Shown here: piece by piece, positions 2,280 to 14,802 of the stretch
Layout: the number at the start of each line of letters is the position of its first letter
Numbering within the stretch: position 1 is the stretch's first letter
From: a virus
Lineage: Duplodnaviria; Heunggongvirae; Uroviricota; Caudoviricetes
IMG/VR virus record: IMGVR_UViG_2563366837_000008
Strand: one strand, 5' to 3'
DNA length: 23,594 bases
Program-made: the position numbers and the translations under genes
Notes under the pieces: model-generated
What the model was told of the DNA's origin: nothing
Databases searched by the model: none
What the model saw: the letters and a program-made list of their open reading frames with translations, nothing else

Positions 2280-2990
2280 ATGCGCCTATAAGGCTCTCTT
2301 ACCAGCCGCGCCCTAACAGGCGCACACGATCTGACATTTGCATCCAACTTCGTTACTTACGGCCCGTAAACGGGCTGCCCGGATAGGGAATCGATAACTG
2401 CTCTCCCATTTTATCCTCTTCAAGCTGGTGCTTTATGTAATCCTGTATCTTCGCCGTGTTCTTACCCACCGTATCGACGTAGTACCCTCTGCACCAGAAC
2501 TCCCTGTTCCTGTATTTGAATTTCAAATCACCAAACTGCTCGTAAAGCATCAGACTGCTTTTCCCTTTCAGATATCCCATAAAGCCGGATACGCTCATTT
2601 TGGGCGGGATCTCCACAAGCATATGGATATGATCTGCACAGCATTCAGCTTCCAGAATCCGTACACTTTTCCACTCACACAGCTTTCTCAAAATACTGCC
2701 TATTGCTCTACGCTTCTCTCTGTAGAACACCTGTCTTCGGTATTTTGGCGCAAAAACTATGTGATATTTACAGTTCCATCGGGTGTGCGCTAAGCTCTTT
2801 TCGTTCCCCATTGGGACCCCCTTTTGATTTCTTGTTTGACACTTGCAGTTGCCAGACCGCAAGGTGTTTTAACAAATCAAAAGGGGTTTTAATAACTGGC
2901 TTAAAGCTGAAAGCTTTCCGGAACCCCCAGCCTAGCTGGGGGTTTTCTGTGCACAAAAAAAGCCACCAGTTAAGTACTGATGGCTCTGAT
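2280..2990 (-). mobile_element. IS200-family insertion sequence (IS200/IS605 group), about 0.7 kb; boundaries approximate
   Basis: Contains a 152-aa IS200-type TnpA; perfect hairpin ACCCCCAGC-CTA-GCTGGGGGT followed by TTTT at 2923..2946 upstream of tnpA, the characteristic IS200 left-end structure. Exact ends not determinable by eye. Confidence 0.6.
2353..2811 (-). CDS. tnpA: IS200 transposase TnpA (HUH/Y1 single-strand transposase), 152 aa
   Basis: MGNEKSLAHTRWNCKYHIVFAPKYRRQ... with the HUH motif (HIHMLVEIPP) and catalytic Tyr region; the track ORF starts 17 codons upstream at an alternative start. Confidence 0.9.
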   Translation of the reverse strand: MGNEKSLAHTRWNCKYHIVFAPKYRRQVFYREKRRAIGSILRKLCEWKSVRILEAECCADHIHMLVEIPPKMSVSGFMGYLKGKSSLMLYEQFGDLKFKYRNREFWCRGYYVDTVGKNTAKIQDYIKHQLEEDKMGEQLSIPYPGSPFTGRK

Positions 2991-3069
2991 AACTCATGCA
3001 GGCATCTCAGACGACCCACTGACACTACCGGTGAGTTTAACGATACCTTCCATTTGGCTGGCTCACTTT

Positions 3070-4923
3070 TTATGATGATGCCGGTGCATTTATCTCCAGC
3101 ACCAGACTTTCTATCTCAACGCCATACGCTGCATTTTTGGTAATATCCGTCAGCGTCAGCGCATTCAGCCCCAGTGTCAGACTGTCTTTTATGACCTGGA
3201 ATGCCGGGCCAGCCACTCCATTCAGTTTCGGAGTAACCGTGGCACTGCCGGCGGTGAACACCAGCTCCAGCGTCTGCCAGTCGTTACTGTAATTCCCGAA
3301 CTCGCCCAACTTTGTGTTTCCTGCTTTCTTGTGATGCATCAGATTCAGTTTGCCGTCTGTGGTCTGGGTGAAGAACGACATCAGGAACGGGTTACCAGTC
3401 CCGGTCATCGCCACGACGTCAGGTAACGCTACATCGGTATACAGATAAATTCCCAGACCGAACTGGTTGTTGGTCAGTGCGCCTGACAGTCGAAACTTAC
3501 AGCTCAGTCTGCCACCCCGTGTCAGCAGGGAGACTGCGTCATCCACCGGGCGCGTCAGGGACCAGGCTTTATTGCTCTGCTTGGTGATCTTAAATACACC
3601 ATCTGACAACTGAATTCCGCCATTCTTAATGCTCCAGCCCTGCGCAGCAGCGTCTCCGGCTGTCGGCAACAGGGAGATTGTGCGTATGGATGCATCTTCA
3701 GACGGCCCCGATGGCGTGTCGCCGCCGGGCGAGGCTTTGATTTCCGGTGCCTTACCACTAATGAAGGCTAAGGTGCGACCGGCTACGTTCAGAATAGCCG
3801 TTGCCATACGATCGGGAATAATGCCACGACGCGCCCATGAGCTGAAATGCGTCGGGCGATTTGATGATACCCAGTTTTTGTTCGTTCGGGATGCCGAACC
3901 GTAATAACCAGACCCGGCAATATCAGGATCTTCTGACGGGTTGTTTGTCGGTGTATTAACTCCGCTACCATCGGTCATAAAGGGAACAAAATAAATCTGC
4001 TGGGATTCTTTACCTTTATATGCACCATATACCACTTCATATTGCGTACCGTGTTCTTGTTTCCACGCGTATGTCGTGTCGCCACAAATCCAGGGGACTG
4101 ATGCCGGACTTCCACCGTGACACTGCGCCGCCAGCCCGGCAAGGTCAGCACGGAACTGCTGTACCATTGCAAGAAATGCTGCTGGCTGCTGGGCGTAACT
4201 GGCATTCGTCATATCGAATTCCCCCTGCATCCAGCATATCGCCAGCAAAACGTTTTTCGGGTTTTTCTGCAATGCTGCCTTCGTGCGGAAAAGCAGATCC
4301 TGATATAACGGCTTACCCACTCCCCAGCGAGCCGAATCCTGACTGGCTCCCGTGGACTCGCTGAATGTCCCCTCCGTGCCCTGGGTGAATGCCGAACCAC
4401 CACGACAGCATGGTACCAGCAGGATCCCCGCATTATTAGGGATATACGGAAGCAGTTTTTTGGCAATATGTAAGCCCTGTCCGACACAGCCGTACTGCCC
4501 TTTGCTCAGGTCAGCCCGGGGATGGTTAATCGTACTCATATCCTGAACATCATGCAGACAATGGTCAGCAGGAATGATGTCGTTAAATACGCATACTTCA
4601 CCACCGGGAGTCACTGTGTTACGACGGGCCAGTTGCTTAATGCGCGGATGGGGCGCATCGTATGAATCCGGAAGCGGAAGCCCTTCACCGTAAGCCATGG
4701 CATTGGATTGCCCGGCCAGTACGATGACGTAGTACCACTCCGGCTCAGTTGCACCACTGACGACCACATCACCTTCTGCTGCAATCGCCTGCATCAGGGT
4801 ATAAGGGGTTATGGCCACCGGACTACCAAACGGCTGCCAGCCCTCCTTCAGTTTTTGTGTCAGTCGTTTCGCAAGGTCTGACGGCGATGCCGCCCTGACC
4901 ACGTCATAGTGTTTAAATGCCAT
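3070..4923 (-). CDS. nanS: NanS-p-like prophage sialate O-acetylesterase (DUF1737 + SASA/SGNH hydrolase + C-terminal domain), 617 aa
   Basis: N-terminus MAFKHYDVVRAASPSDLAKRL...; SGNH-type nucleophile motif LAGQSNAMAYGEG; size and architecture match the esterase encoded just downstream of stx in Stx prophages (from memory). Confidence 0.8.
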   Translation of the reverse strand: MAFKHYDVVRAASPSDLAKRLTQKLKEGWQPFGSPVAITPYTLMQAIAAEGDVVVSGATEPEWYYVIVLAGQSNAMAYGEGLPLPDSYDAPHPRIKQLARRNTVTPGGEVCVFNDIIPADHCLHDVQDMSTINHPRADLSKGQYGCVGQGLHIAKKLLPYIPNNAGILLVPCCRGGSAFTQGTEGTFSESTGASQDSARWGVGKPLYQDLLFRTKAALQKNPKNVLLAICWMQGEFDMTNASYAQQPAAFLAMVQQFRADLAGLAAQCHGGSPASVPWICGDTTYAWKQEHGTQYEVVYGAYKGKESQQIYFVPFMTDGSGVNTPTNNPSEDPDIAGSGYYGSASRTNKNWVSSNRPTHFSSWARRGIIPDRMATAILNVAGRTLAFISGKAPEIKASPGGDTPSGPSEDASIRTISLLPTAGDAAAQGWSIKNGGIQLSDGVFKITKQSNKAWSLTRPVDDAVSLLTRGGRLSCKFRLSGALTNNQFGLGIYLYTDVALPDVVAMTGTGNPFLMSFFTQTTDGKLNLMHHKKAGNTKLGEFGNYSNDWQTLELVFTAGSATVTPKLNGVAGPAFQVIKDSLTLGLNALTLTDITKNAAYGVEIESLVLEINAPASS

Positions 4924-5113
4924 GAATCCTCCCGGGCGGGATAATGTTGTGAGTCAGATAAGGAGCAGGCTGAAGTCCGGAAGTTACAGGACAATGGCAG
5001 AAGGGAGACTACAGCCCGCAATTCGAAAAAGACCGCGCAGTTGCGCAGAGTGATTACTATGGGGTATTATTCGCCAGCTGAAATATTACTTCACGTTTTA
5101 TTGTTTATTCCTT

Positions 5114-5145
5114 GCCGCCCGCGTCTCCCAGCGCGGGCTTTTTTT
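5114..5145 (+). terminator. Rho-independent terminator on the + strand (GCCCGCG-loop-CGCGGGC followed by TTTTTTT)
   Basis: Perfect 7-bp GC stem and a 7-T run seen directly; no + strand gene upstream is apparent. Confidence 0.5.
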
Positions 5146-5149
5146 GTCC

Positions 5150-5176
5150 ATAAGAAAGCCCCTCCGGAGAGGGGCT
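5150..5176 (-). terminator. Rho-independent terminator on the - strand (AGCCCCTC-CGGA-GAGGGGCT followed on the - strand by TTTCTT); 3' end of repeat unit A
   Basis: 8-bp GC stem plus U-rich tract on the - strand; an identical hairpin recurs at 5644..5663 (unit B). Confidence 0.45.
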
Positions 5177-5395
5177 AAAGCCGCGTATCTGTATCATCAT
5201 GCACATGGTGCCGGGTGCCTCCCGGTGAGTTCAGCCCGGTGCCACTAAACCCGCGTCATTCTCGTTTTGATAATCAGAGATTATACCGTCACCAGTCGCC
5301 CCTCCGCTCAGGGGGATTCACCATGCGAAATTTTTTTAACAAATGCCCAGTCTGACAGGCAACTGTCAACTTACTGAATTGTGAGCAACATAGCA
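5153..5395. repeat. Non-coding direct repeat unit A, about 240 bp
   Basis: Shares with unit B these conserved blocks: AAAGCCCCTCCGGAGAGGGGCT, GCATGGTGCCGGGTGCCTCCCGGTGA, GCCCCTCCGC(T/A)CAGGGGGATTCACCATGC, TTTTAACAAA, CTGAATTGTGAG. Conservation is at hairpin/nucleotide level and falls in different reading frames in the two copies. Confidence 0.6.
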
Positions 5396-5421
5396 TTTAA
5401 CGGGGAACCTGTTTTCTGCAG

Positions 5422-5455
5422 TAAAAAGGCCCACCGGAGCGGATGGGCCTGGAAG
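5422..5455 (-). terminator. Terminator-like hairpin on the - strand (AGGCCCA...TGGGCCT followed by TTTTT) between the two repeat units
   Basis: Inverted repeat plus T-run (A-run on +) seen in the sequence. Confidence 0.4.
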
Positions 5456-5637
5456 GATAGCGGTCATGTGATGCCGGTTTCCCGGTAACTCAGCACCGGT
5501 ATCTGAGTCAACGTTTTCTCTACTGGGTCATTTCCGATACGCCCTGCCTGCTGACAGGCTTTCATCACATCTGAAAATATAGCACCCTGACTGATACTGT
5601 AGTACCTAAGGTTCCAGAAACTGTGATGTATCCGGCA

Positions 5638-5865
5638 CAGAAAAGCCCCTCCGGAGAGGGGCTGGAGAGTGGCGCTATGTGCCATTGCATGGTGCCGGGT
5701 GCCTCCCGGTGAATTCAGTACCAGCACCTGAATCCGCGATTATCCCATATACCTACTCGCTGATTGCCCCTCCGCACAGGGGGATTCACCATGCCAGTTT
5801 CTTTTAACAAACTCCCCGCAAACCAGACAACAGTCAACCGCCTGAATTGTGAGACATTTAAAAAA
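5638..5865. repeat. Non-coding direct repeat unit B (paralog of unit A), ending on the - strand in the same GC hairpin plus U-tract (5644..5663)
   Basis: See unit A; roughly 65-70 % identity overall by eye, with near-identical hairpin cores. Confidence 0.6.
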
Positions 5866-5897
5866 AGCCCGCAAAAGCGAGCCAGGGAAAATAAGTG

Positions 5898-5974
5898 TGG
5901 CGCGTTGTACTGGATTCGAACCAGTGACCGATTGCTTAGAAGGCAATTGCTCTGTCCGGCTGAGCTAACAACGC
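5898..5974 (-). tRNA. tRNA-Arg (anticodon UCU), 77 nt
   Basis: Hand-folded cloverleaf: acceptor GCGTTGT/ACAACGC, D stem GCTC/GAGC, anticodon stem ATTGC/GCAAT with loop CTTCTAA, T arm ACTGG-TTCGAAT-CCAGT, discriminator G plus CCA. Confidence 0.8.
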
Positions 5975-5987
5975 AGGATACAGATAA

Positions 5988-6064
5988 TGGACCGCCTTCG
6001 GGGACCCGAACTCCGCGCAACCAGCTTCGAAGGCTGGCGCTCTATCCTGATGAGCTAATGGCGG
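5988..6064 (-). tRNA. tRNA-Arg-like (anticodon UCG), 77 nt, with non-canonical features
   Basis: Anticodon stem CCAGC/GCTGG with loop CTTCGAA and D arm GCTC...GAGC are clean, but my fold has one acceptor-stem mismatch, one T-stem mismatch and T-loop TTCGGGT (G at position 58). Could be functional or degenerate. Confidence 0.5.
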
Positions 6065-6071
6065 TATGTGA

Positions 6072-6147
6072 TGGTGGCCCTTGCTGGATTTGAACCAGCG
6101 ACCTGGCGATTATGAGTCGCTCGCTCTCACCACTGAGCTAAAGGGCC
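6072..6147 (-). tRNA. ileZ: tRNA-Ile2 (anticodon CAU, lysidine-type; reads AUA), 76 nt
   Basis: Near-identical to E. coli ileX by memory (GGCCCTTTAGCTCAGTGGTGAGAGCGAGCGACTCATAATCGCCAGGTCGCTGGTTCAAATCCAGCAAGGGCCACCA); first tRNA downstream of Q, as ileZ is in Stx phages. Confidence 0.8.
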
Positions 6148-6187
6148 GGGAGCCGCATAATAACGACGCGTAATTAATTCTTCAATA

Positions 6188-6595
6188 TCATCCGTTCTGG
6201 CTGACTAAATCCTGTACTTCCCGAACCGTCTGCTCAAAACGTTCAGTCTCCAGCTCAACGCCAATTGCACGACGCCCGAGCGCCAGTGCCGCTTTCACTG
6301 TCGAACCCGACCCCATGAAAAAATCTGCAATCAGGTCACCCGGACGACTGCTAGCGCTGATTATCTGCTGCAGCATTTCTGCCGGTTTTTCGCACGGATG
6401 TTTCCCGGGATAGAACTGCACCGGTTTATGCGTCCAGACATCGGTATACGGCACCTGCGCCGTCACGCCAAAATACCGCCGCAGTCGGCATTCACAACCA
6501 CCAGCGCATTTAACGTTCAGGCACAAAAAAAACCGCTCATCGGCGGGTTTAAGCTGTGTGACGAAGTAACTACTCTTAACAGCATAACCAATTTT
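6188..6595 (-). pseudogene. C-terminal remnant of an N6/N4 DNA methyltransferase (PF01555-like); N-terminal catalytic half missing
   Basis: Contains the AdoMet-binding end (HPCEKPAEMLQQIISASSRPGDLIADFFMGSGSTVKAALALGRRAIGVELE) but no upstream DPPY/DPPW block; the frame is open only about 23 codons upstream of the track start, then hits a stop and AT-rich DNA. Confidence 0.6.
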
Positions 6596-6599
6596 TTAC

Positions 6600-6976
6600 G
6601 TACGTAAACTACTAAATGATATTTGTGAGAATGCCACCGAGTGTTCAAAACACCACCACAAATACATAAGAAAACTTCAACAAATAACCAATAAATAATT
6701 TCGGATGTTATTTTTAGTTTGTTTAAATTAAGCTAAAGAATTATAGACTACTTATAAATAAGTGCCATTAATATAAATTAGCTAATAGATTTATTTTTGT
6801 TCAAACAAGAGCCATGAATAGGATTAGATAGAAAAGGTTCAGATAAAAATAGAGATCTACTTCACAAATTAAATGAGAAACTAAAACTTACATCTTGAAA
6901 TAATCACATTGATTAGATGAATATTTATCGCGCAGTGACATCATTTTTTTATAATAGTTCAAAAAAAGGGCGTACA
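6600..6976 (+). promoter_or_regulatory. Strongly AT-rich upstream region of the porin gene (promoter/regulatory region of a horizontally acquired moron)
   Basis: About 380 bp of markedly AT-rich DNA immediately 5' of the porin start, sharply different from flanking composition; no promoter elements assigned. Confidence 0.3.
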
Positions 6977-8059
6977 ATGAAAAAATTAACAGTGGCAATT
7001 TCTGCTGTAGCTGCATCAGTACTGATGGCGATGTCTGCTCAGGCAGCTGAAATTTATAATAAAGACAGTAACAAGCTGGATCTATACGGGAAAGTTAATG
7101 CCAAGCACTACTTCTCCTCTAATGATGCAGATGATGGTGATACTACTTATGCCCGTCTTGGCTTCAAAGGTGAAACCCAAATCAACGATCAACTGACTGG
7201 GTTCGGTCAGTGGGAATATGACTTCAAAGGCAACCGTGCTGAATCTCAAGGTTCTTCCAAAGACAAAACCCGTCTTGCATTTGCAGGCCTGAAATTTGGT
7301 GATTACGGCTCAATCGATTACGGCCGTAACTTCGGTGTAGCATACGACATCGGTGCGTGGACTGACGTCCTGCCAGAATTCGGTGGTGACACTTGGACTC
7401 AAACCGACGTGTTCATGACTCAACGTGCAACTGGTGTTGCAACTTATCGTAACAACGACTTCTTTGGTCTGGTCGATGGCCTGAACTTTGCTGCTCAGTA
7501 TCAGGGTAAAAATGACCGCACTGACGTAGCTGAAGCCAATGGTGATGGTTTCGGTTTCTCCACTACTTATGAGTATGAAGGATTCGGCGTGGGTGCAACC
7601 TATGCTAAATCAGATCGCACTGACGGTCAGGTCGCCTATGGTAAGAGCAAATTCAATGCCTCCGGCAAAAATGCGGAAGTATGGGCTGCAGGCCTGAAAT
7701 ATGATGCGAACAATATCTATCTGGCTACCACATATTCTGAAACTCAGAATATGACCGTTTTTGGTAATAACCATATTGCAAACAAAGCACAAAACTTTGA
7801 AGCAGTAGCACAATATCAGTTTGACTTCGGTCTGCGCCCATCTGTTGCTTACCTTCAGTCAAAAGGTAAAGACCTTGGTGTTCATGGTGACCGAGACTTA
7901 GTCAAGTATGTCGATGTCGGTGCTACTTACTACTTTAATAAAAACATGTCCACTTTTGTTGATTACAAAATCAACTTAATTGACGATAGTAAGTTTACCA
8001 AAACAGCTGGTATTGATACCGACGACATCGTCGCTGTAGGTCTGGTTTATCAGTTCTAA
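6977..8059 (+). CDS. nmpC: Prophage-encoded general porin of the OmpC/OmpF/PhoE family (NmpC/Lc-like), 360 aa with signal peptide
   Basis: [23 protein letters not shown] signal peptide then [16 protein letters not shown]... and C-terminal ...VAVGLVYQF; AGGG RBS 8 nt upstream. The track ORF starts 20 codons earlier (6917), which I reject. Opposite orientation just downstream of Q, as nmpC in DLP12. Confidence 0.85.
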
Positions 8060-8076
8060 TCTGACTTACGAAAAAG

Positions 8077-8110
8077 ATATGTTGCGGGAGGCTTTGCCTC
8101 CGCAACATAT
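8077..8110 (-). terminator. tR'-like intrinsic terminator on the - strand (15-bp imperfect hairpin followed on the - strand by CTTTTT)
   Basis: ATATGTTGCGGGAGGC-TTT-GCCTCCGCAACATAT with a T-run at about 8071..8076 on the - strand; lies about 170 nt downstream of the Q stop, analogous to lambda tR' ending the short 6S leader. Confidence 0.45.
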
Positions 8111-8195
8111 AAGTGGAGCCCTCAAGCCACTTCCTTTAGAAGCACTACCTTGCTTCTTACTATATAAACCTTCTGTTATATATTACCCTTTATTT

Positions 8196-8220
8196 GGGGG
8201 CGTTTCCACGCCCCATTTTT
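8196..8220 (+). terminator. Rho-independent terminator on the + strand (GGGGCGT-TTCC-ACGCCCC followed by ATTTTT), downstream of the porin gene
   Basis: Perfect 7-bp stem plus T-run seen directly. Confidence 0.5.
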
Positions 8221-8246
8221 AATAACTTTTAGTAAACAATTGCATA

Positions 8247-8630
8247 TCAATTAGAATTATTAGCAACGATATCCATATCTAACCGGATATCTAATGCCAT
8301 TAACATCCCTTCAATTATGCCCTCAGCCTTCTGTAACCTTTTCCCGATATAACCATCCGAGCAGCAATGCTTACTTGCCAGTGACATGAATGTCATACCA
8401 CATACATAATAATCTACTAATAAATCGTGTAAATCGCTGTTGTTCTTTTTCAGACGGGCCATGCACCCGCAAATGATCATCGCGTCATCGTCACAACATT
8501 GCGGGCGAGATTTTACTTTTGAAGGAATTAATCCCTTAAAACCGGCAGCAATGGACGACCAGGTCACATCCTCATGATTATTTGCCGCCCATGCTCCCCA
8601 GCGTTCGAGAACCATCTGAATATCACGCAT
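8247..8630 (-). CDS. Q: Late-gene antiterminator Q (small PF06530-type, QuuD/QuuQ-like), 127 aa
   Basis: [35 protein letters not shown]...[16 protein letters not shown]; the track ORF starts at an upstream TTG (8645), the ATG at 8630 is the likely start; followed by a terminator-bounded leader, then late genes. Confidence 0.75.
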
Positions 8631-8647
8631 CAACTTTCTCCACAAAA

Positions 8648-13951: not shown

Positions 13952-14802
13952 GGGCGAACCTCCTTGTCAGAACCATTCAGCCTGGAATCAACAAGTGCAG
14001 CGCCAAAAACAGCATCACCAACACGGTCGTACAGTTTGCTAGCCAGCGGAGATTCAACGGCCTTAAGCATTGGATAAAGCTGGCTTGTCCAGATTTGATG
14101 GATTTCACGCAAATGCAGGTATACGCCTCTGGCGTTTCGTGCGACAGCTGACATATCAGACGCATCGGCACCTGATAAACTCTTCTCCATCAGGTTAAAG
14201 GCGTTGATGTATGCCTCTTTGAACCGGGCAGCACGTTTACCAGTGAAGCCCATGGCAAGGAACGCGAAGCCATCGCGGGTGATTTGATAGCAAGGTAGTT
14301 TGCGGCCTGATGCGTCGGTGTATTCACTTAACACAAAATTGTGTTCAGTAAATTCAGCGGAACATTCGAGGTTTCTAATTCTATCTAAAACCCGCTCATG
14401 CCGTTTAGTAAAGTAATTAGCTACTGCAAGAGATGTGGTGACAACGCGACCATTGATAATCGTGATTTCAGGGTGAGATTGGGTTGGGAGAGTAGTCATG
14501 GTGACAGCCCCTATGTTGAATTCAATGAACTCACCACCAAGGCTTTCCACGACCATATAGGTGGTGAGACGTACAGGGGTGGAAATACCGGTCAACATAG
14601 AACCCGGCCCAACCGAAGTTGGCCCTGCACGCCCCACCATAATTTGGGCGTAACGATGCTCATGACACGAAAAAACCGCATGAGCGCGGTTGTGCTCTAT
14701 ATTGAATTTCGGGTTTCCACGCCCGGCACCCGCTTTATAAGGTGCCTGAGCAGTGTAACGTCCCGGAATTGCAGAATCAATATTTGGTCTTGAAATGATC
14801 AT
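13948..14802 (-). CDS. Phage regulatory protein Rha family (Phage_pRha domain in the C-terminal half); start uncertain, 284 aa from 14802 or 183 aa from 14499
   Basis: Rha-like block VVTTSLAVANYFTKRHERVLDRIRNL...YTDASGRKLPCYQITRDGFAFLAMGFTGKRAARFKEAYINAFNLME; the internal ATG at 14499 has a strong AGGGG RBS, the ATG at 14802 has none. Confidence 0.7.
   Translation of the reverse strand: MIISRPNIDSAIPGRYTAQAPYKAGAGRGNPKFNIEHNRAHAVFSCHEHRYAQIMVGRAGPTSVGPGSMLTGISTPVRLTTYMVVESLGGEFIEFNIGAVTMTTLPTQSHPEITIINGRVVTTSLAVANYFTKRHERVLDRIRNLECSAEFTEHNFVLSEYTDASGRKLPCYQITRDGFAFLAMGFTGKRAARFKEAYINAFNLMEKSLSGADASDMSAVARNARGVYLHLREIHQIWTSQLYPMLKAVESPLASKLYDRVGDAVFGAALVDSRLNGSDKEVRP

Follow-up and report, generated by a model that had tools for sequence, protein, structure and literature searches.

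What occupies the place in the late region of a lambdoid prophage at which phages encoding Shiga toxin (Stx) carry their toxin genes? The question is raised by a 23,594-nt stretch of DNA, IMG/VR virus record IMGVR_UViG_2563366837_000008 (the window; all coordinates are positions in it), in which a tRNA cluster and the gene of a NanS-p-type sialate O-acetylesterase are separated by 974 nt (5897..4924, from argO to nanS-p). The window is a lambdoid prophage of Escherichia coli, 100% identical over 4.2 kb to the chromosomes of E. coli NMBU_W05E18 and U1. According to the RefSeq annotation of the identical locus and our own scans, the late genes lie on the minus strand, along which their order is read here: Q, a methylase remnant, tRNA-Ile/Arg/Arg, the interval, NanS-p esterase, holin, lysozyme and Rz. 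An earlier note on this DNA had viewed the entire interval as an empty toxin slot. We consider it probable that what lies between argO and nanS-p is a toxin-free form of that part of a lambdoid prophage late operon which accommodates regulatory RNAs and morons.

Small RNA genes between the tRNAs and nanS-p

Using the Rfam model of STnc100 (RF02076, gathering score 47 bits), we detected three small RNA (sRNA) genes in tandem in the interval, designated A, B and C (Table 1). A and C were found at the gathering threshold, and both are full-length matches (model positions 1-206). B, retrieved by a permissive search, is also a full-length match, albeit a weak one that scores under the gathering threshold. 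The STnc100 family corresponds to EcOnc05, EcOnc06 and EcOnc27 (Tree et al. 2014, PMC4104026) and to sRNA103 of strain EDL933. In that study, Hfq-crosslinked sRNAs were mapped in E. coli O157:H7 Sakai, and discrete Hfq-bound RNAs were observed by UV crosslinking and analysis of cDNA (CRAC) and by northern blotting (PMC4104026). With the EcOnc coordinates of its Table S2 placed on the Sakai chromosome, the EcOnc05 Hfq-CRAC segment of Sakai prophage Sp4 matches copy A at 100% (window 5762..5654), and the northern probes for EcOnc05 and EcOnc06 (PMC4104026) are both contained in A. A weak OmrA-B match in the Rfam results (25 bits vs a gathering score of 40) was rejected as a chance match driven by the terminator.

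Convergent pairs of sRNAs 3′ of the late promoter PR′, at the moron insertion site, are known from at least eight lambdoid prophages of Sakai (PMC4104026, PMC7873438). As in the dyads EcOnc27/AsxR, EcOnc06/AgvB and EcOnc05/EcOnc08, copy C and a plus-strand RNA at 5071..5145 form a pair in the window, the partner being of the EcOnc08 type found in Sp4 and not AsxR or AgvB. The Hfq-CRAC segment of Sakai EcOnc08 is 97% identical over 73 nt to window 5071..5143 (plus strand), and the terminator of this RNA converges on an STnc100 gene, the two features by which the EcOnc08 type can be recognized. AsxR and AgvB are recognized by a conserved 3′ region of ~42 nt (GTATCTCATGCnnTTGCCCGAACCCACTCGGGCTTTT) and a length of 51-60 nt. 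This type of anti-sRNA was tried as the convergent partner and rejected: a pattern search of the window for the conserved 3′ 37-mer, allowing as many as 3 mismatches, found nothing, and the Rfam AsxR/AgvB search gave no match in the window at E-values up to 10, while the same kind of search, used as a positive control, detected AsxR opposite STnc100 in Sakai prophage Sp5. A promoter-like site (ATGCCA-17-GATAAT, 4917..4945, plus strand) lies across the start codon of nanS-p and is directed into the leader. Judging from its position, this site could drive an EcOnc08-type RNA of ~194 nt up to the terminator at 5145; given that the size seen in Sakai northern blots is ~271 nt, the true start may lie inside nanS-p.

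Starts of A, B and C were assigned by alignment to PasD2 of enteropathogenic E. coli (EPEC) E2348/69, for which a 5′ end has been reported on the basis of RNA-seq coverage and the size in northern blots (PMC8550237 Table S6). This reported end, the G of GCAUGGUG, falls in the alignment 7 nt beyond the −10 element of each of the three copies, and the extended −10 of each copy ends 6 nt upstream of the presumed start.

In all complete loci that we examined, namely those of the window, phage PhiR5_2, E. coli EBJ001 and Escherichia albertii NBRC 107761, B is flanked on both sides by a canonical copy. E. albertii has the same order of tRNAs, A-B-C and esterase, and in PhiR5_2 the array is present without the tRNAs. 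The B element between sRNA copies was found in 671 of the 5,426 complete E. coli genomes (~12%). It comes in two sequence variants, the best match being at least 99% identical to the window in 347 records and 90-95% identical in 322; among the matches listed for B are the extraintestinal pathogenic E. coli (ExPEC) strain S88 and the type strain ATCC 11775. One exact 24-mer scan for B among GTDB species representatives, too strict to define its range, matched only E. albertii. In EBJ001 (locus L007, 2263..3281), the array is followed by iraM, encoding an anti-adaptor, on the opposite strand in place of nanS-p, and is preceded by a different antiterminator of 273 aa and a single tRNA-Ile. The occurrence of the array next to iraM indicates that it moves as a block between late-region contexts.

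We found no description of the tandem A-B-C array or of the sub-threshold B paralog in the literature searched. The array with its unannotated B paralog is only a modest new element, since the site itself is already covered by published work (PMC4104026, PMC7873438, PMC12711010, PMC12370729 and the 2026 Pas preprint).

Conserved fold and mosaic structure of the sRNA family

To compare the three genes with their relatives, we used an alignment of 14 sequences, comprising A, B, C, EcOnc27 (Sp5), the copies from VT1-Sakai (VT1 copy) and a Stx2a phage, copies from PhiR5_2, EBJ001 and MY504, and PasD2. The consensus structure obtained with RNAalifold consists of an 8-bp closing helix, GCAUGGUG/CACCAUGC, followed by a 5′ hairpin and a variable internal domain closed by a short helix; in the 3′ part there are an 8-bp hairpin, a 4-bp hairpin, a single-stranded tail and the terminator. 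The fold characteristic of STnc100, a closing helix around hairpins followed by a tail and an intrinsic terminator, is therefore present in this alignment. In the alignment, 95.1% of the cells are paired, compared with 38-48% for slid partners, double-sided changes occur in 15 of the 34 pairs, and the covariation score was reached by none of 500 shuffles. Given that the structure was obtained from these very sequences, which are related to each other, the figures show consistency and are not a proof. In B, the closing helix is kept with another sequence (AUGUGAUG/CAUCACAU), which involves three compensatory, double-sided pairs, and B folded by itself adopts the family architecture (minimum free energy −54.4 kcal/mol, z −2.65).

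The closest counterparts beyond STnc100 are PasD1 and PasD2 of EPEC E2348/69, which share with A, B and C the 5′ end GCAUGGUGAAUCC, the closing helix, the order of the hairpins and the position upstream of a SASA esterase gene. The relationship of PasD to STnc100 and the order pasD-esterase-holin have been noted before, the copies of PasD being distal, and those of PasA and PasD not being arranged in tandem (bioRxiv 10.64898/2026.05.13.724894). PasD differs in having a long U-rich tail, which includes the seed CCUUGUGAG, and another terminator. Membership in PasD is defined by sequence, including this seed in the 3′ tail, and in the alignment with PasD2 neither A nor B nor C has such a tail. 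Compared with known STnc100 loci, the module of the window has the usual placement, after the tRNAs or stxB and before nanS-p, but there are three tandem genes instead of one and the tail of B is different.

Within the alignment, the internal domain and the 3′ tail assort independently. Copy A, the VT1 copy and the Stx2a-phage copy have a common tail, AAUGGCACAUAGCGCCACUCUCC, and three different internal domains, whereas the Stx2a-phage copy and EcOnc27 share the internal domain and have different tails and terminators. Thus, internal domains and tails with terminators are combined differently among Stx1, Stx2 and non-Stx phages, which points to crossovers in the conserved CACCGGGAGGCACCCGGCACCAUG segment. 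Recombination inside conserved segments is the simplest explanation for this independent assortment, and it also accounts for the tandem array.

An extension of this idea, which we put forward tentatively and regard as possible though not favored, is that A-B-C represents a prophage cassette system that diversifies sRNA seeds. The conserved scaffold (the GCAUGGUG helix, the CCGGGAGGCACCCGG hairpin and the terminator) would provide the recombination points, and domains and tails would be swapped between phages and stacked in tandem, so that one prophage would carry three non-redundant Hfq-binding sRNAs. B would then be a distinct unnamed subfamily, the extended −10 promoter of which is strong and the tail of which (CUAUCCUUCC) is rich in C and U and resembles an anti-Shine-Dalgarno sequence.

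The stx2 insertion point and the toxin-free junction

Alignment to an Stx prophage to find the exact junction, the check that the earlier note had suggested, was run against Sp5. In Sp5 of Sakai and in the Stx2a phage, the order is tRNAs, ~90 nt, stxA, stxB, ~74 nt, STnc100, ~220 nt and nanS-p, and a distance of 75 nt between stx2B and STnc100 has also been reported (PMC12370729). The note was thus right that the order of modules in the window is that in which stxAB is embedded in Stx2 prophages. By BLAST, window 6298..5856 corresponds to Sp5 2615..3058 (90% identity), and the alignment resumes at window 5856, equivalent to Sp5 4390, with the right flank 71-78% identical to the right flank of stx2 in Sp5. 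Because homology ends and resumes at ~5856, the 1,331-bp stx2AB cassette corresponds to a single point. The idea that the whole interval is the toxin slot has to be abandoned accordingly: the DNA downstream of this point is part of the scaffold of both Stx1 and Stx2 phages. The point is located 41 nt after argO, directly after the tRNA terminator and directly before CTCACAATTCAG, the conserved sequence with which the sRNA module begins. Records of Stx2 phages match our junction probe up to query position 132, corresponding to window 5859.

In VT1-Sakai (Stx1) and in the Stx2 phages alike, stxB is immediately followed by this sRNA module. VT1-Sakai has no tRNAs, and its stx1B is followed by the module and nanS-p. 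Thus, sRNA, leader and nanS-p constitute the scaffold, to which the tRNAs and stx have been added separately on the upstream side. Between them, the late regions of Stx2 (933W/Sp5) and Stx1 (VT1-Sakai) phages share with the window a Q of the same Pfam family, the PR′/tR′-like element, ileZ-argN-argO, the tRNA terminator, the STnc100 module, the leader terminator and nanS-p. The window differs from them in that stxAB is absent, Q and the tRNAs are set apart by a porin gene and the remnant of a methylase gene, two extra sRNA genes are present and the structural genes are lambda-like. All parts of the scaffold named in the earlier note (Q, three tRNAs and a nanS-p-like esterase) are indeed present on the minus strand, except that they are not contiguous, with Q lying 2.1 kb upstream of the tRNAs and the porin gene and truncated methylase intervening.

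A further counterpart is Sp4, a lambda-like, non-Stx prophage of Sakai, which has the same ileZ1-argN1-argO1 cluster, terminator, seamless junction, A-type sRNA, EcOnc08-type RNA and 617-aa esterase. The identity between its interval and window 6150..5642 amounts to 99%. Only one sRNA gene is present in the 490-nt interval of Sp4, and the window therefore contains ~485 extra nt, comprising B and C.

No stxA or stxB, which would define a Stx-converting prophage, is present between PR′ and the sRNA/nanS-p module of the window, and no significant blastn or tblastn match to stx1 or stx2 remnants was found anywhere in the window. The scaffold of Stx prophages (Q, PR′/tR′, optional ileZ-argN-argO, STnc100 module, nanS-p and lysis genes) is present, and it is equally found in non-Stx prophages. 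Using a 201-nt probe covered over at least 80%, we found the seamless junction in 1,003 of the 5,426 complete E. coli genomes; the equivalent Sp5 probe revealed the stx2-occupied junction in 597. The seamless junction is 95-100% identical across ~1,000 genomes, many of them not Stx-producing E. coli (non-STEC). They include uropathogenic (UPEC) and avian pathogenic E. coli (APEC), wastewater isolates and O157 strains, with Sp4 of Sakai as a further example, and phages Nil3, PhiR49_2 and vB_EcoS-611R1 carry the same junction. The toxin-free allele being commoner than the occupied one in this genome set argues against taking the scaffold as a sign that a prophage was once an Stx phage. The earlier note had tied the scaffold to Stx phages, allowing that the tie would break if the arrangement were equally common without stx, and this is essentially what the counts show. 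Of its two suggestions, a stx-negative relative or a site that lost its cargo, the absence of toxin genes holds, while loss finds no support, given the missing remnant and the seamless junction in so many genomes. The locus is a common toxin-free state of a known moron site, with nothing ever demonstrably present at the junction.

In E. coli Z0117EC0005 (locus L010, 3517..3785), the tRNA module breaks off ~36-40 nt after argO and continues into DNA of an unrelated type of phage, with a putative holin and genes for the baseplate. The joining of the same breakpoint to unrelated DNA marks it as a general mosaic, or recurrent recombination, boundary.

A model for the locus in the lysogen and after induction

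The features described above can be combined in the following scheme. The ileZ-argN-argO cluster would be a self-promoted tRNA operon with its own terminator, downstream of the PR′/tR′-like element. In the lysogen, A, B and C would each be transcribed from their own extended −10 sigma-70 promoter and stop at their own intrinsic terminator, and the convergent RNA would likewise be an independently transcribed, Hfq-associated, trans-acting sRNA. Binding of Hfq would involve the structured body as well as the hairpin and U-tail of the terminator. By analogy with PasD, the single-stranded tail that leads from the closing helix to the terminator, and that is different in A, B and C, would serve as the seed for host or prophage mRNAs, and the internal loops possibly also select targets. 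Six intrinsic terminators are present on the late strand between ~6541 and 5033; those between PR′ and nanS-p would keep the esterase and lysis genes silent in the lysogen. In lambdoid phages, expression of Stx and of the late genes depends on read-through by Q. Upon induction, the Q-modified RNA polymerase would read through all terminators. In Stx phages, stxAB is an extra moron just upstream of the sRNA module. In this scheme, the transcription starts, the Hfq dependence of B and C, the seed positions and the insulation by terminators are the parts that we infer; the identity of the elements, their layout, the junction, the conservation of the fold and the distribution are shown by the data above.

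Alternative explanations

The sRNA genes overlap open reading frames (ORFs), and one may ask whether the interval encodes small proteins, such as those of ORFs 5727..5464 and 5215..5355, and not RNAs. ORFs of the interval match phrog_23557 (E-value 7e-30) and phrog_24488 (E-value 4e-11), RefSeq and phage records annotate 'hypothetical proteins' here, and a 33-codon frame remains open in three variants, the frame of the B region being the one that matches phrog_23557. However, comparison of the two variants of B shows 13 codons with non-synonymous and 5 with synonymous differences, the changes cluster in a hairpin and the closing helix with pairing kept, and the ORF over copy C is antisense to the 165-bit Rfam match. 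Both PHROG families, although matched by profile, have no known function and show no sign of selection at the protein level, and they are most simply explained as gene calls over sRNA genes. A role of B as a gene for a protein of 33 or 55 aa was rejected on the basis of its non-coding substitution pattern, in spite of the open frame and the PHROG match. We find the protein explanation extremely improbable, and read B as an RNA gene and phrog_23557 as gene calls made over it; both families look like annotation artefacts of STnc100-family loci. The statement of the earlier note that the interval lacks protein-like ORFs thus needs amending, since such frames exist and two have PHROG matches, and it survives in so far as the substitutions are those of non-coding DNA. 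Its description of the interval as ~1 kb of structured non-coding DNA agrees with 11 terminator-like sites in 4700..7200, compared with 2.6 ± 1.5 in shuffles, yet it overlooked that this DNA holds A, B, C and a convergent sRNA. Separately, RefSeq places a pseudo 'hypothetical protein' antisense to copy A.

Loss of cargo, that is, descent from a Stx phage by precise removal of the stxAB cassette with the scaffold left behind, would be in keeping with the homology of both flanks of 5856 to those of stx2 in Sp5 and with a Q gene that belongs to the same Pfam family as that of Sp5 and is 75% identical to it at the nucleotide level. It is nevertheless very unlikely in view of the negative blastn and tblastn searches for stx remnants, the near-identity of the seamless junction in genomes that include many non-STEC strains and Sp4, the structural genes that are lambda-like as in Sp4 (labelled 'lambda-like' in its own record) and the breakpoint that joins the tRNA module to unrelated DNA in Z0117EC0005. 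Another view concerns the function of the RNAs: the structured elements might act mainly in cis, as a terminator/insulator and processing array or as recombination scaffolds, their role as trans-acting sRNAs being incidental. The six late-strand terminators, the dependence of Stx and late genes on Q read-through and the independent assortment of sRNA domains and tails among phages, with the recombination in conserved segments that it implies, would all fit. Nonetheless, we judge it unlikely. Identical or near-identical sequences give discrete Hfq-bound RNAs in Sakai, as seen by CRAC and northern blotting, and PasD, with its seed in the tail, has many mRNA partners in EPEC according to RIL-seq, a method that ligates and sequences interacting RNAs (PMC8550237). 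Moreover, it is the whole fold that is conserved and not the terminators alone, and cis and trans roles are compatible with each other.

Several observations weigh against our preferred interpretation of a toxin-free regulatory-RNA and moron region. A consensus sigma-70 scan did not flag the proposed sRNA promoters, which score at most 8/12 on the two hexamers. The sizes in Sakai northern blots are ~177 nt for EcOnc06, ~222 nt for EcOnc05 and ~235/247 nt for EcOnc27 (PMC4104026), and those of EcOnc05 and EcOnc27 exceed the lengths of 148-175 nt predicted for A, B and C. There may be longer species that start near the module boundary (~5860) or are processed from read-through RNA, and the promoter assignment is perhaps incomplete; since the EcOnc05 and EcOnc27 sizes would put the 5′ ends close to where the module begins, it is likely that longer RNAs, primary or processed, occur. 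B, being under the Rfam threshold, could be a decaying copy. Hints at targets of STnc100-type sRNAs come from overexpression or in silico only (fimZ/espA for sRNA103, and an 11-nt match to stxB), with no target known by direct interaction. Finally, if an earlier stx cassette had been swapped out by homologous replacement of the whole module, this would leave no trace.

Layout of the late region and neighboring elements

The features of the late region are collected in Table 1.

Table 1. Features of the window in and around the interval between the tRNA cluster and nanS-p
Feature	Position	Strand	Evidence or remarks
Q-type late antiterminator, QuuD-like	8645..8247	-	PF06530, 181 bits; RefSeq quuD
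OmpC/NmpC-type porin gene	6917..8059	+	PF00267, 503 bits; annotated porin OmpC; between Q and PR′-like region
Putative PR′-like late promoter with short StxS-like leader and tR′ terminator	6611..6520	-	Likeness to Sp5
N6/N4 DNA methyltransferase gene, 3′ remnant	6526..6188	-	PF01555, profile positions 135-220 only; RefSeq pseudogene, N-terminus missing
tRNA-Ile, CAT anticodon, ileZ-type	6147..6072	-	ARAGORN; Rfam tRNA; RefSeq Ile
tRNA-Arg, TCG, argN	6064..5988	-	ARAGORN; Rfam tRNA; RefSeq Arg
tRNA-Arg, TCT, argO	5974..5898	-	ARAGORN; Rfam tRNA; RefSeq Arg
Intrinsic terminator ending the tRNA operon	5883..5866	-	GGCTCGCTTTTGCGGGCT then T7
Unoccupied moron junction, stx2AB position of Stx2 prophages	5853..5860	.	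Sp5 alignment; junction probe
sRNA gene A, STnc100 family, EcOnc05/06 type	5823..5633	-	RF02076, 136.3 bits, E 1e-30
Extended −10 of A, TGtTAAAAG	5809..5801	-	Putative core transcript 5794..5641, ~154 nt
Terminator of A	5663..5644	-	Intrinsic
ORF, 87 aa or 33 aa	5727..5464	-	PHROG match
sRNA gene B, divergent STnc100/PasD-family paralog	~5594..5421	-	RF02076, 30.1 bits, E 1.9e-4 (permissive search)
Extended −10 of B, TGcTATATT	5584..5576	-	Putative transcript 5570..5423, ~148 nt
Terminator of B	5450..5427	-	Intrinsic
sRNA gene C, STnc100 family	5355..5146	-	RF02076, 165.4 bits, E 1e-37
Extended −10 of C, TGtTAAAAA	5341..5333	-	Putative core transcript 5326..5152, ~175 nt
ORF over copy C	5215..5355	+	PHROG match
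Terminator of C	5176..5157	-	Intrinsic
Convergent sRNA of the EcOnc08 type (Sakai Sp4), 3′ part with terminator	5071..5145	+	Also E2348C_1409.1408.IGR type in EPEC
Terminator of convergent sRNA	5117..5138	+	Then T7; RNA converges on C
Intrinsic terminator, nanS-p leader	5048..5033	-	CTGCGCAACTGCGCGG then TCTTTTT
NanS-p-type sialate O-acetylesterase, 617 aa	4923..3070	-	DUF1737, SASA and DUF6645; RefSeq: SASA family carbohydrate esterase

Over 92 nt, the PR′-like element shows 78% identity to the PR′-tR′ (StxS) region that immediately follows Q in Sp5, a likeness that includes the hairpin GCCGATGAGCGG followed by a T8 run. It is located ~1.7 kb from the Q gene with the porin gene between them on the opposite strand, a layout that resembles DLP12, and terminator hairpins occur directly after Q (~8230..8070). 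The methylase upstream of the tRNAs is of full length (349 aa; locus L010, 2245..3294) in Z0117EC0005 and apparently also in E. albertii. The presence of only a C-terminal fragment in the window suggests a deletion between PR′ and the tRNAs in its lineage.

The tRNA cluster, 99% identical to ileZ1-argN1-argO1 of Sp4, is directly preceded by a promoter-like site (6185..6157) identified in a promoter scan. The terminator of the tRNA operon is kept upstream of stx2A in Sp5, and that of the nanS-p leader is kept in Sp4, Sp5 and the Stx2a phage (L002). According to RefSeq, the lambda-like structural genes comprise those for terminase, portal, S49 protease, decoration protein and major capsid.

Two further RNA loci were observed. 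STnc490, an Hfq-binding RNA, has a full-length match in Rfam (146 bits; 2944..2821, minus strand) that is situated between nanS-p and the gene for holin and overlaps the holin start at ~2919. Being on the late strand, it does not represent the antisense PasA of the equivalent position in EPEC, and a search of the window with the PasA sequence gave no match. In addition, C4 antisense RNA (82 bits) and isrK (62 bits) lie side by side at 14557..14745 (minus strand), next to Rha/antirepressor genes. This pair constitutes a P1/P7-type immI-like antirepressor control module inside a lambdoid prophage, and the same pair is present in phage PhiR5_2.

Implications

The stx2 insertion point, which separates the terminator of the tRNAs from the STnc100 module, is now known with an uncertainty of a few bases. 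When lambdoid prophage genomes are scanned, a stretch without genes that separates tRNAs from nanS-p is better taken for a locus of sRNAs than for a virulence slot left empty. Both the tandem array and the paralog B, which is missed at the Rfam threshold, extend the catalogue of sRNAs in the accessory genome. Phage gene callers label sRNAs of the A-B-C type as hypothetical proteins, and among the matches listed, such sRNAs are common in extraintestinal E. coli strains.

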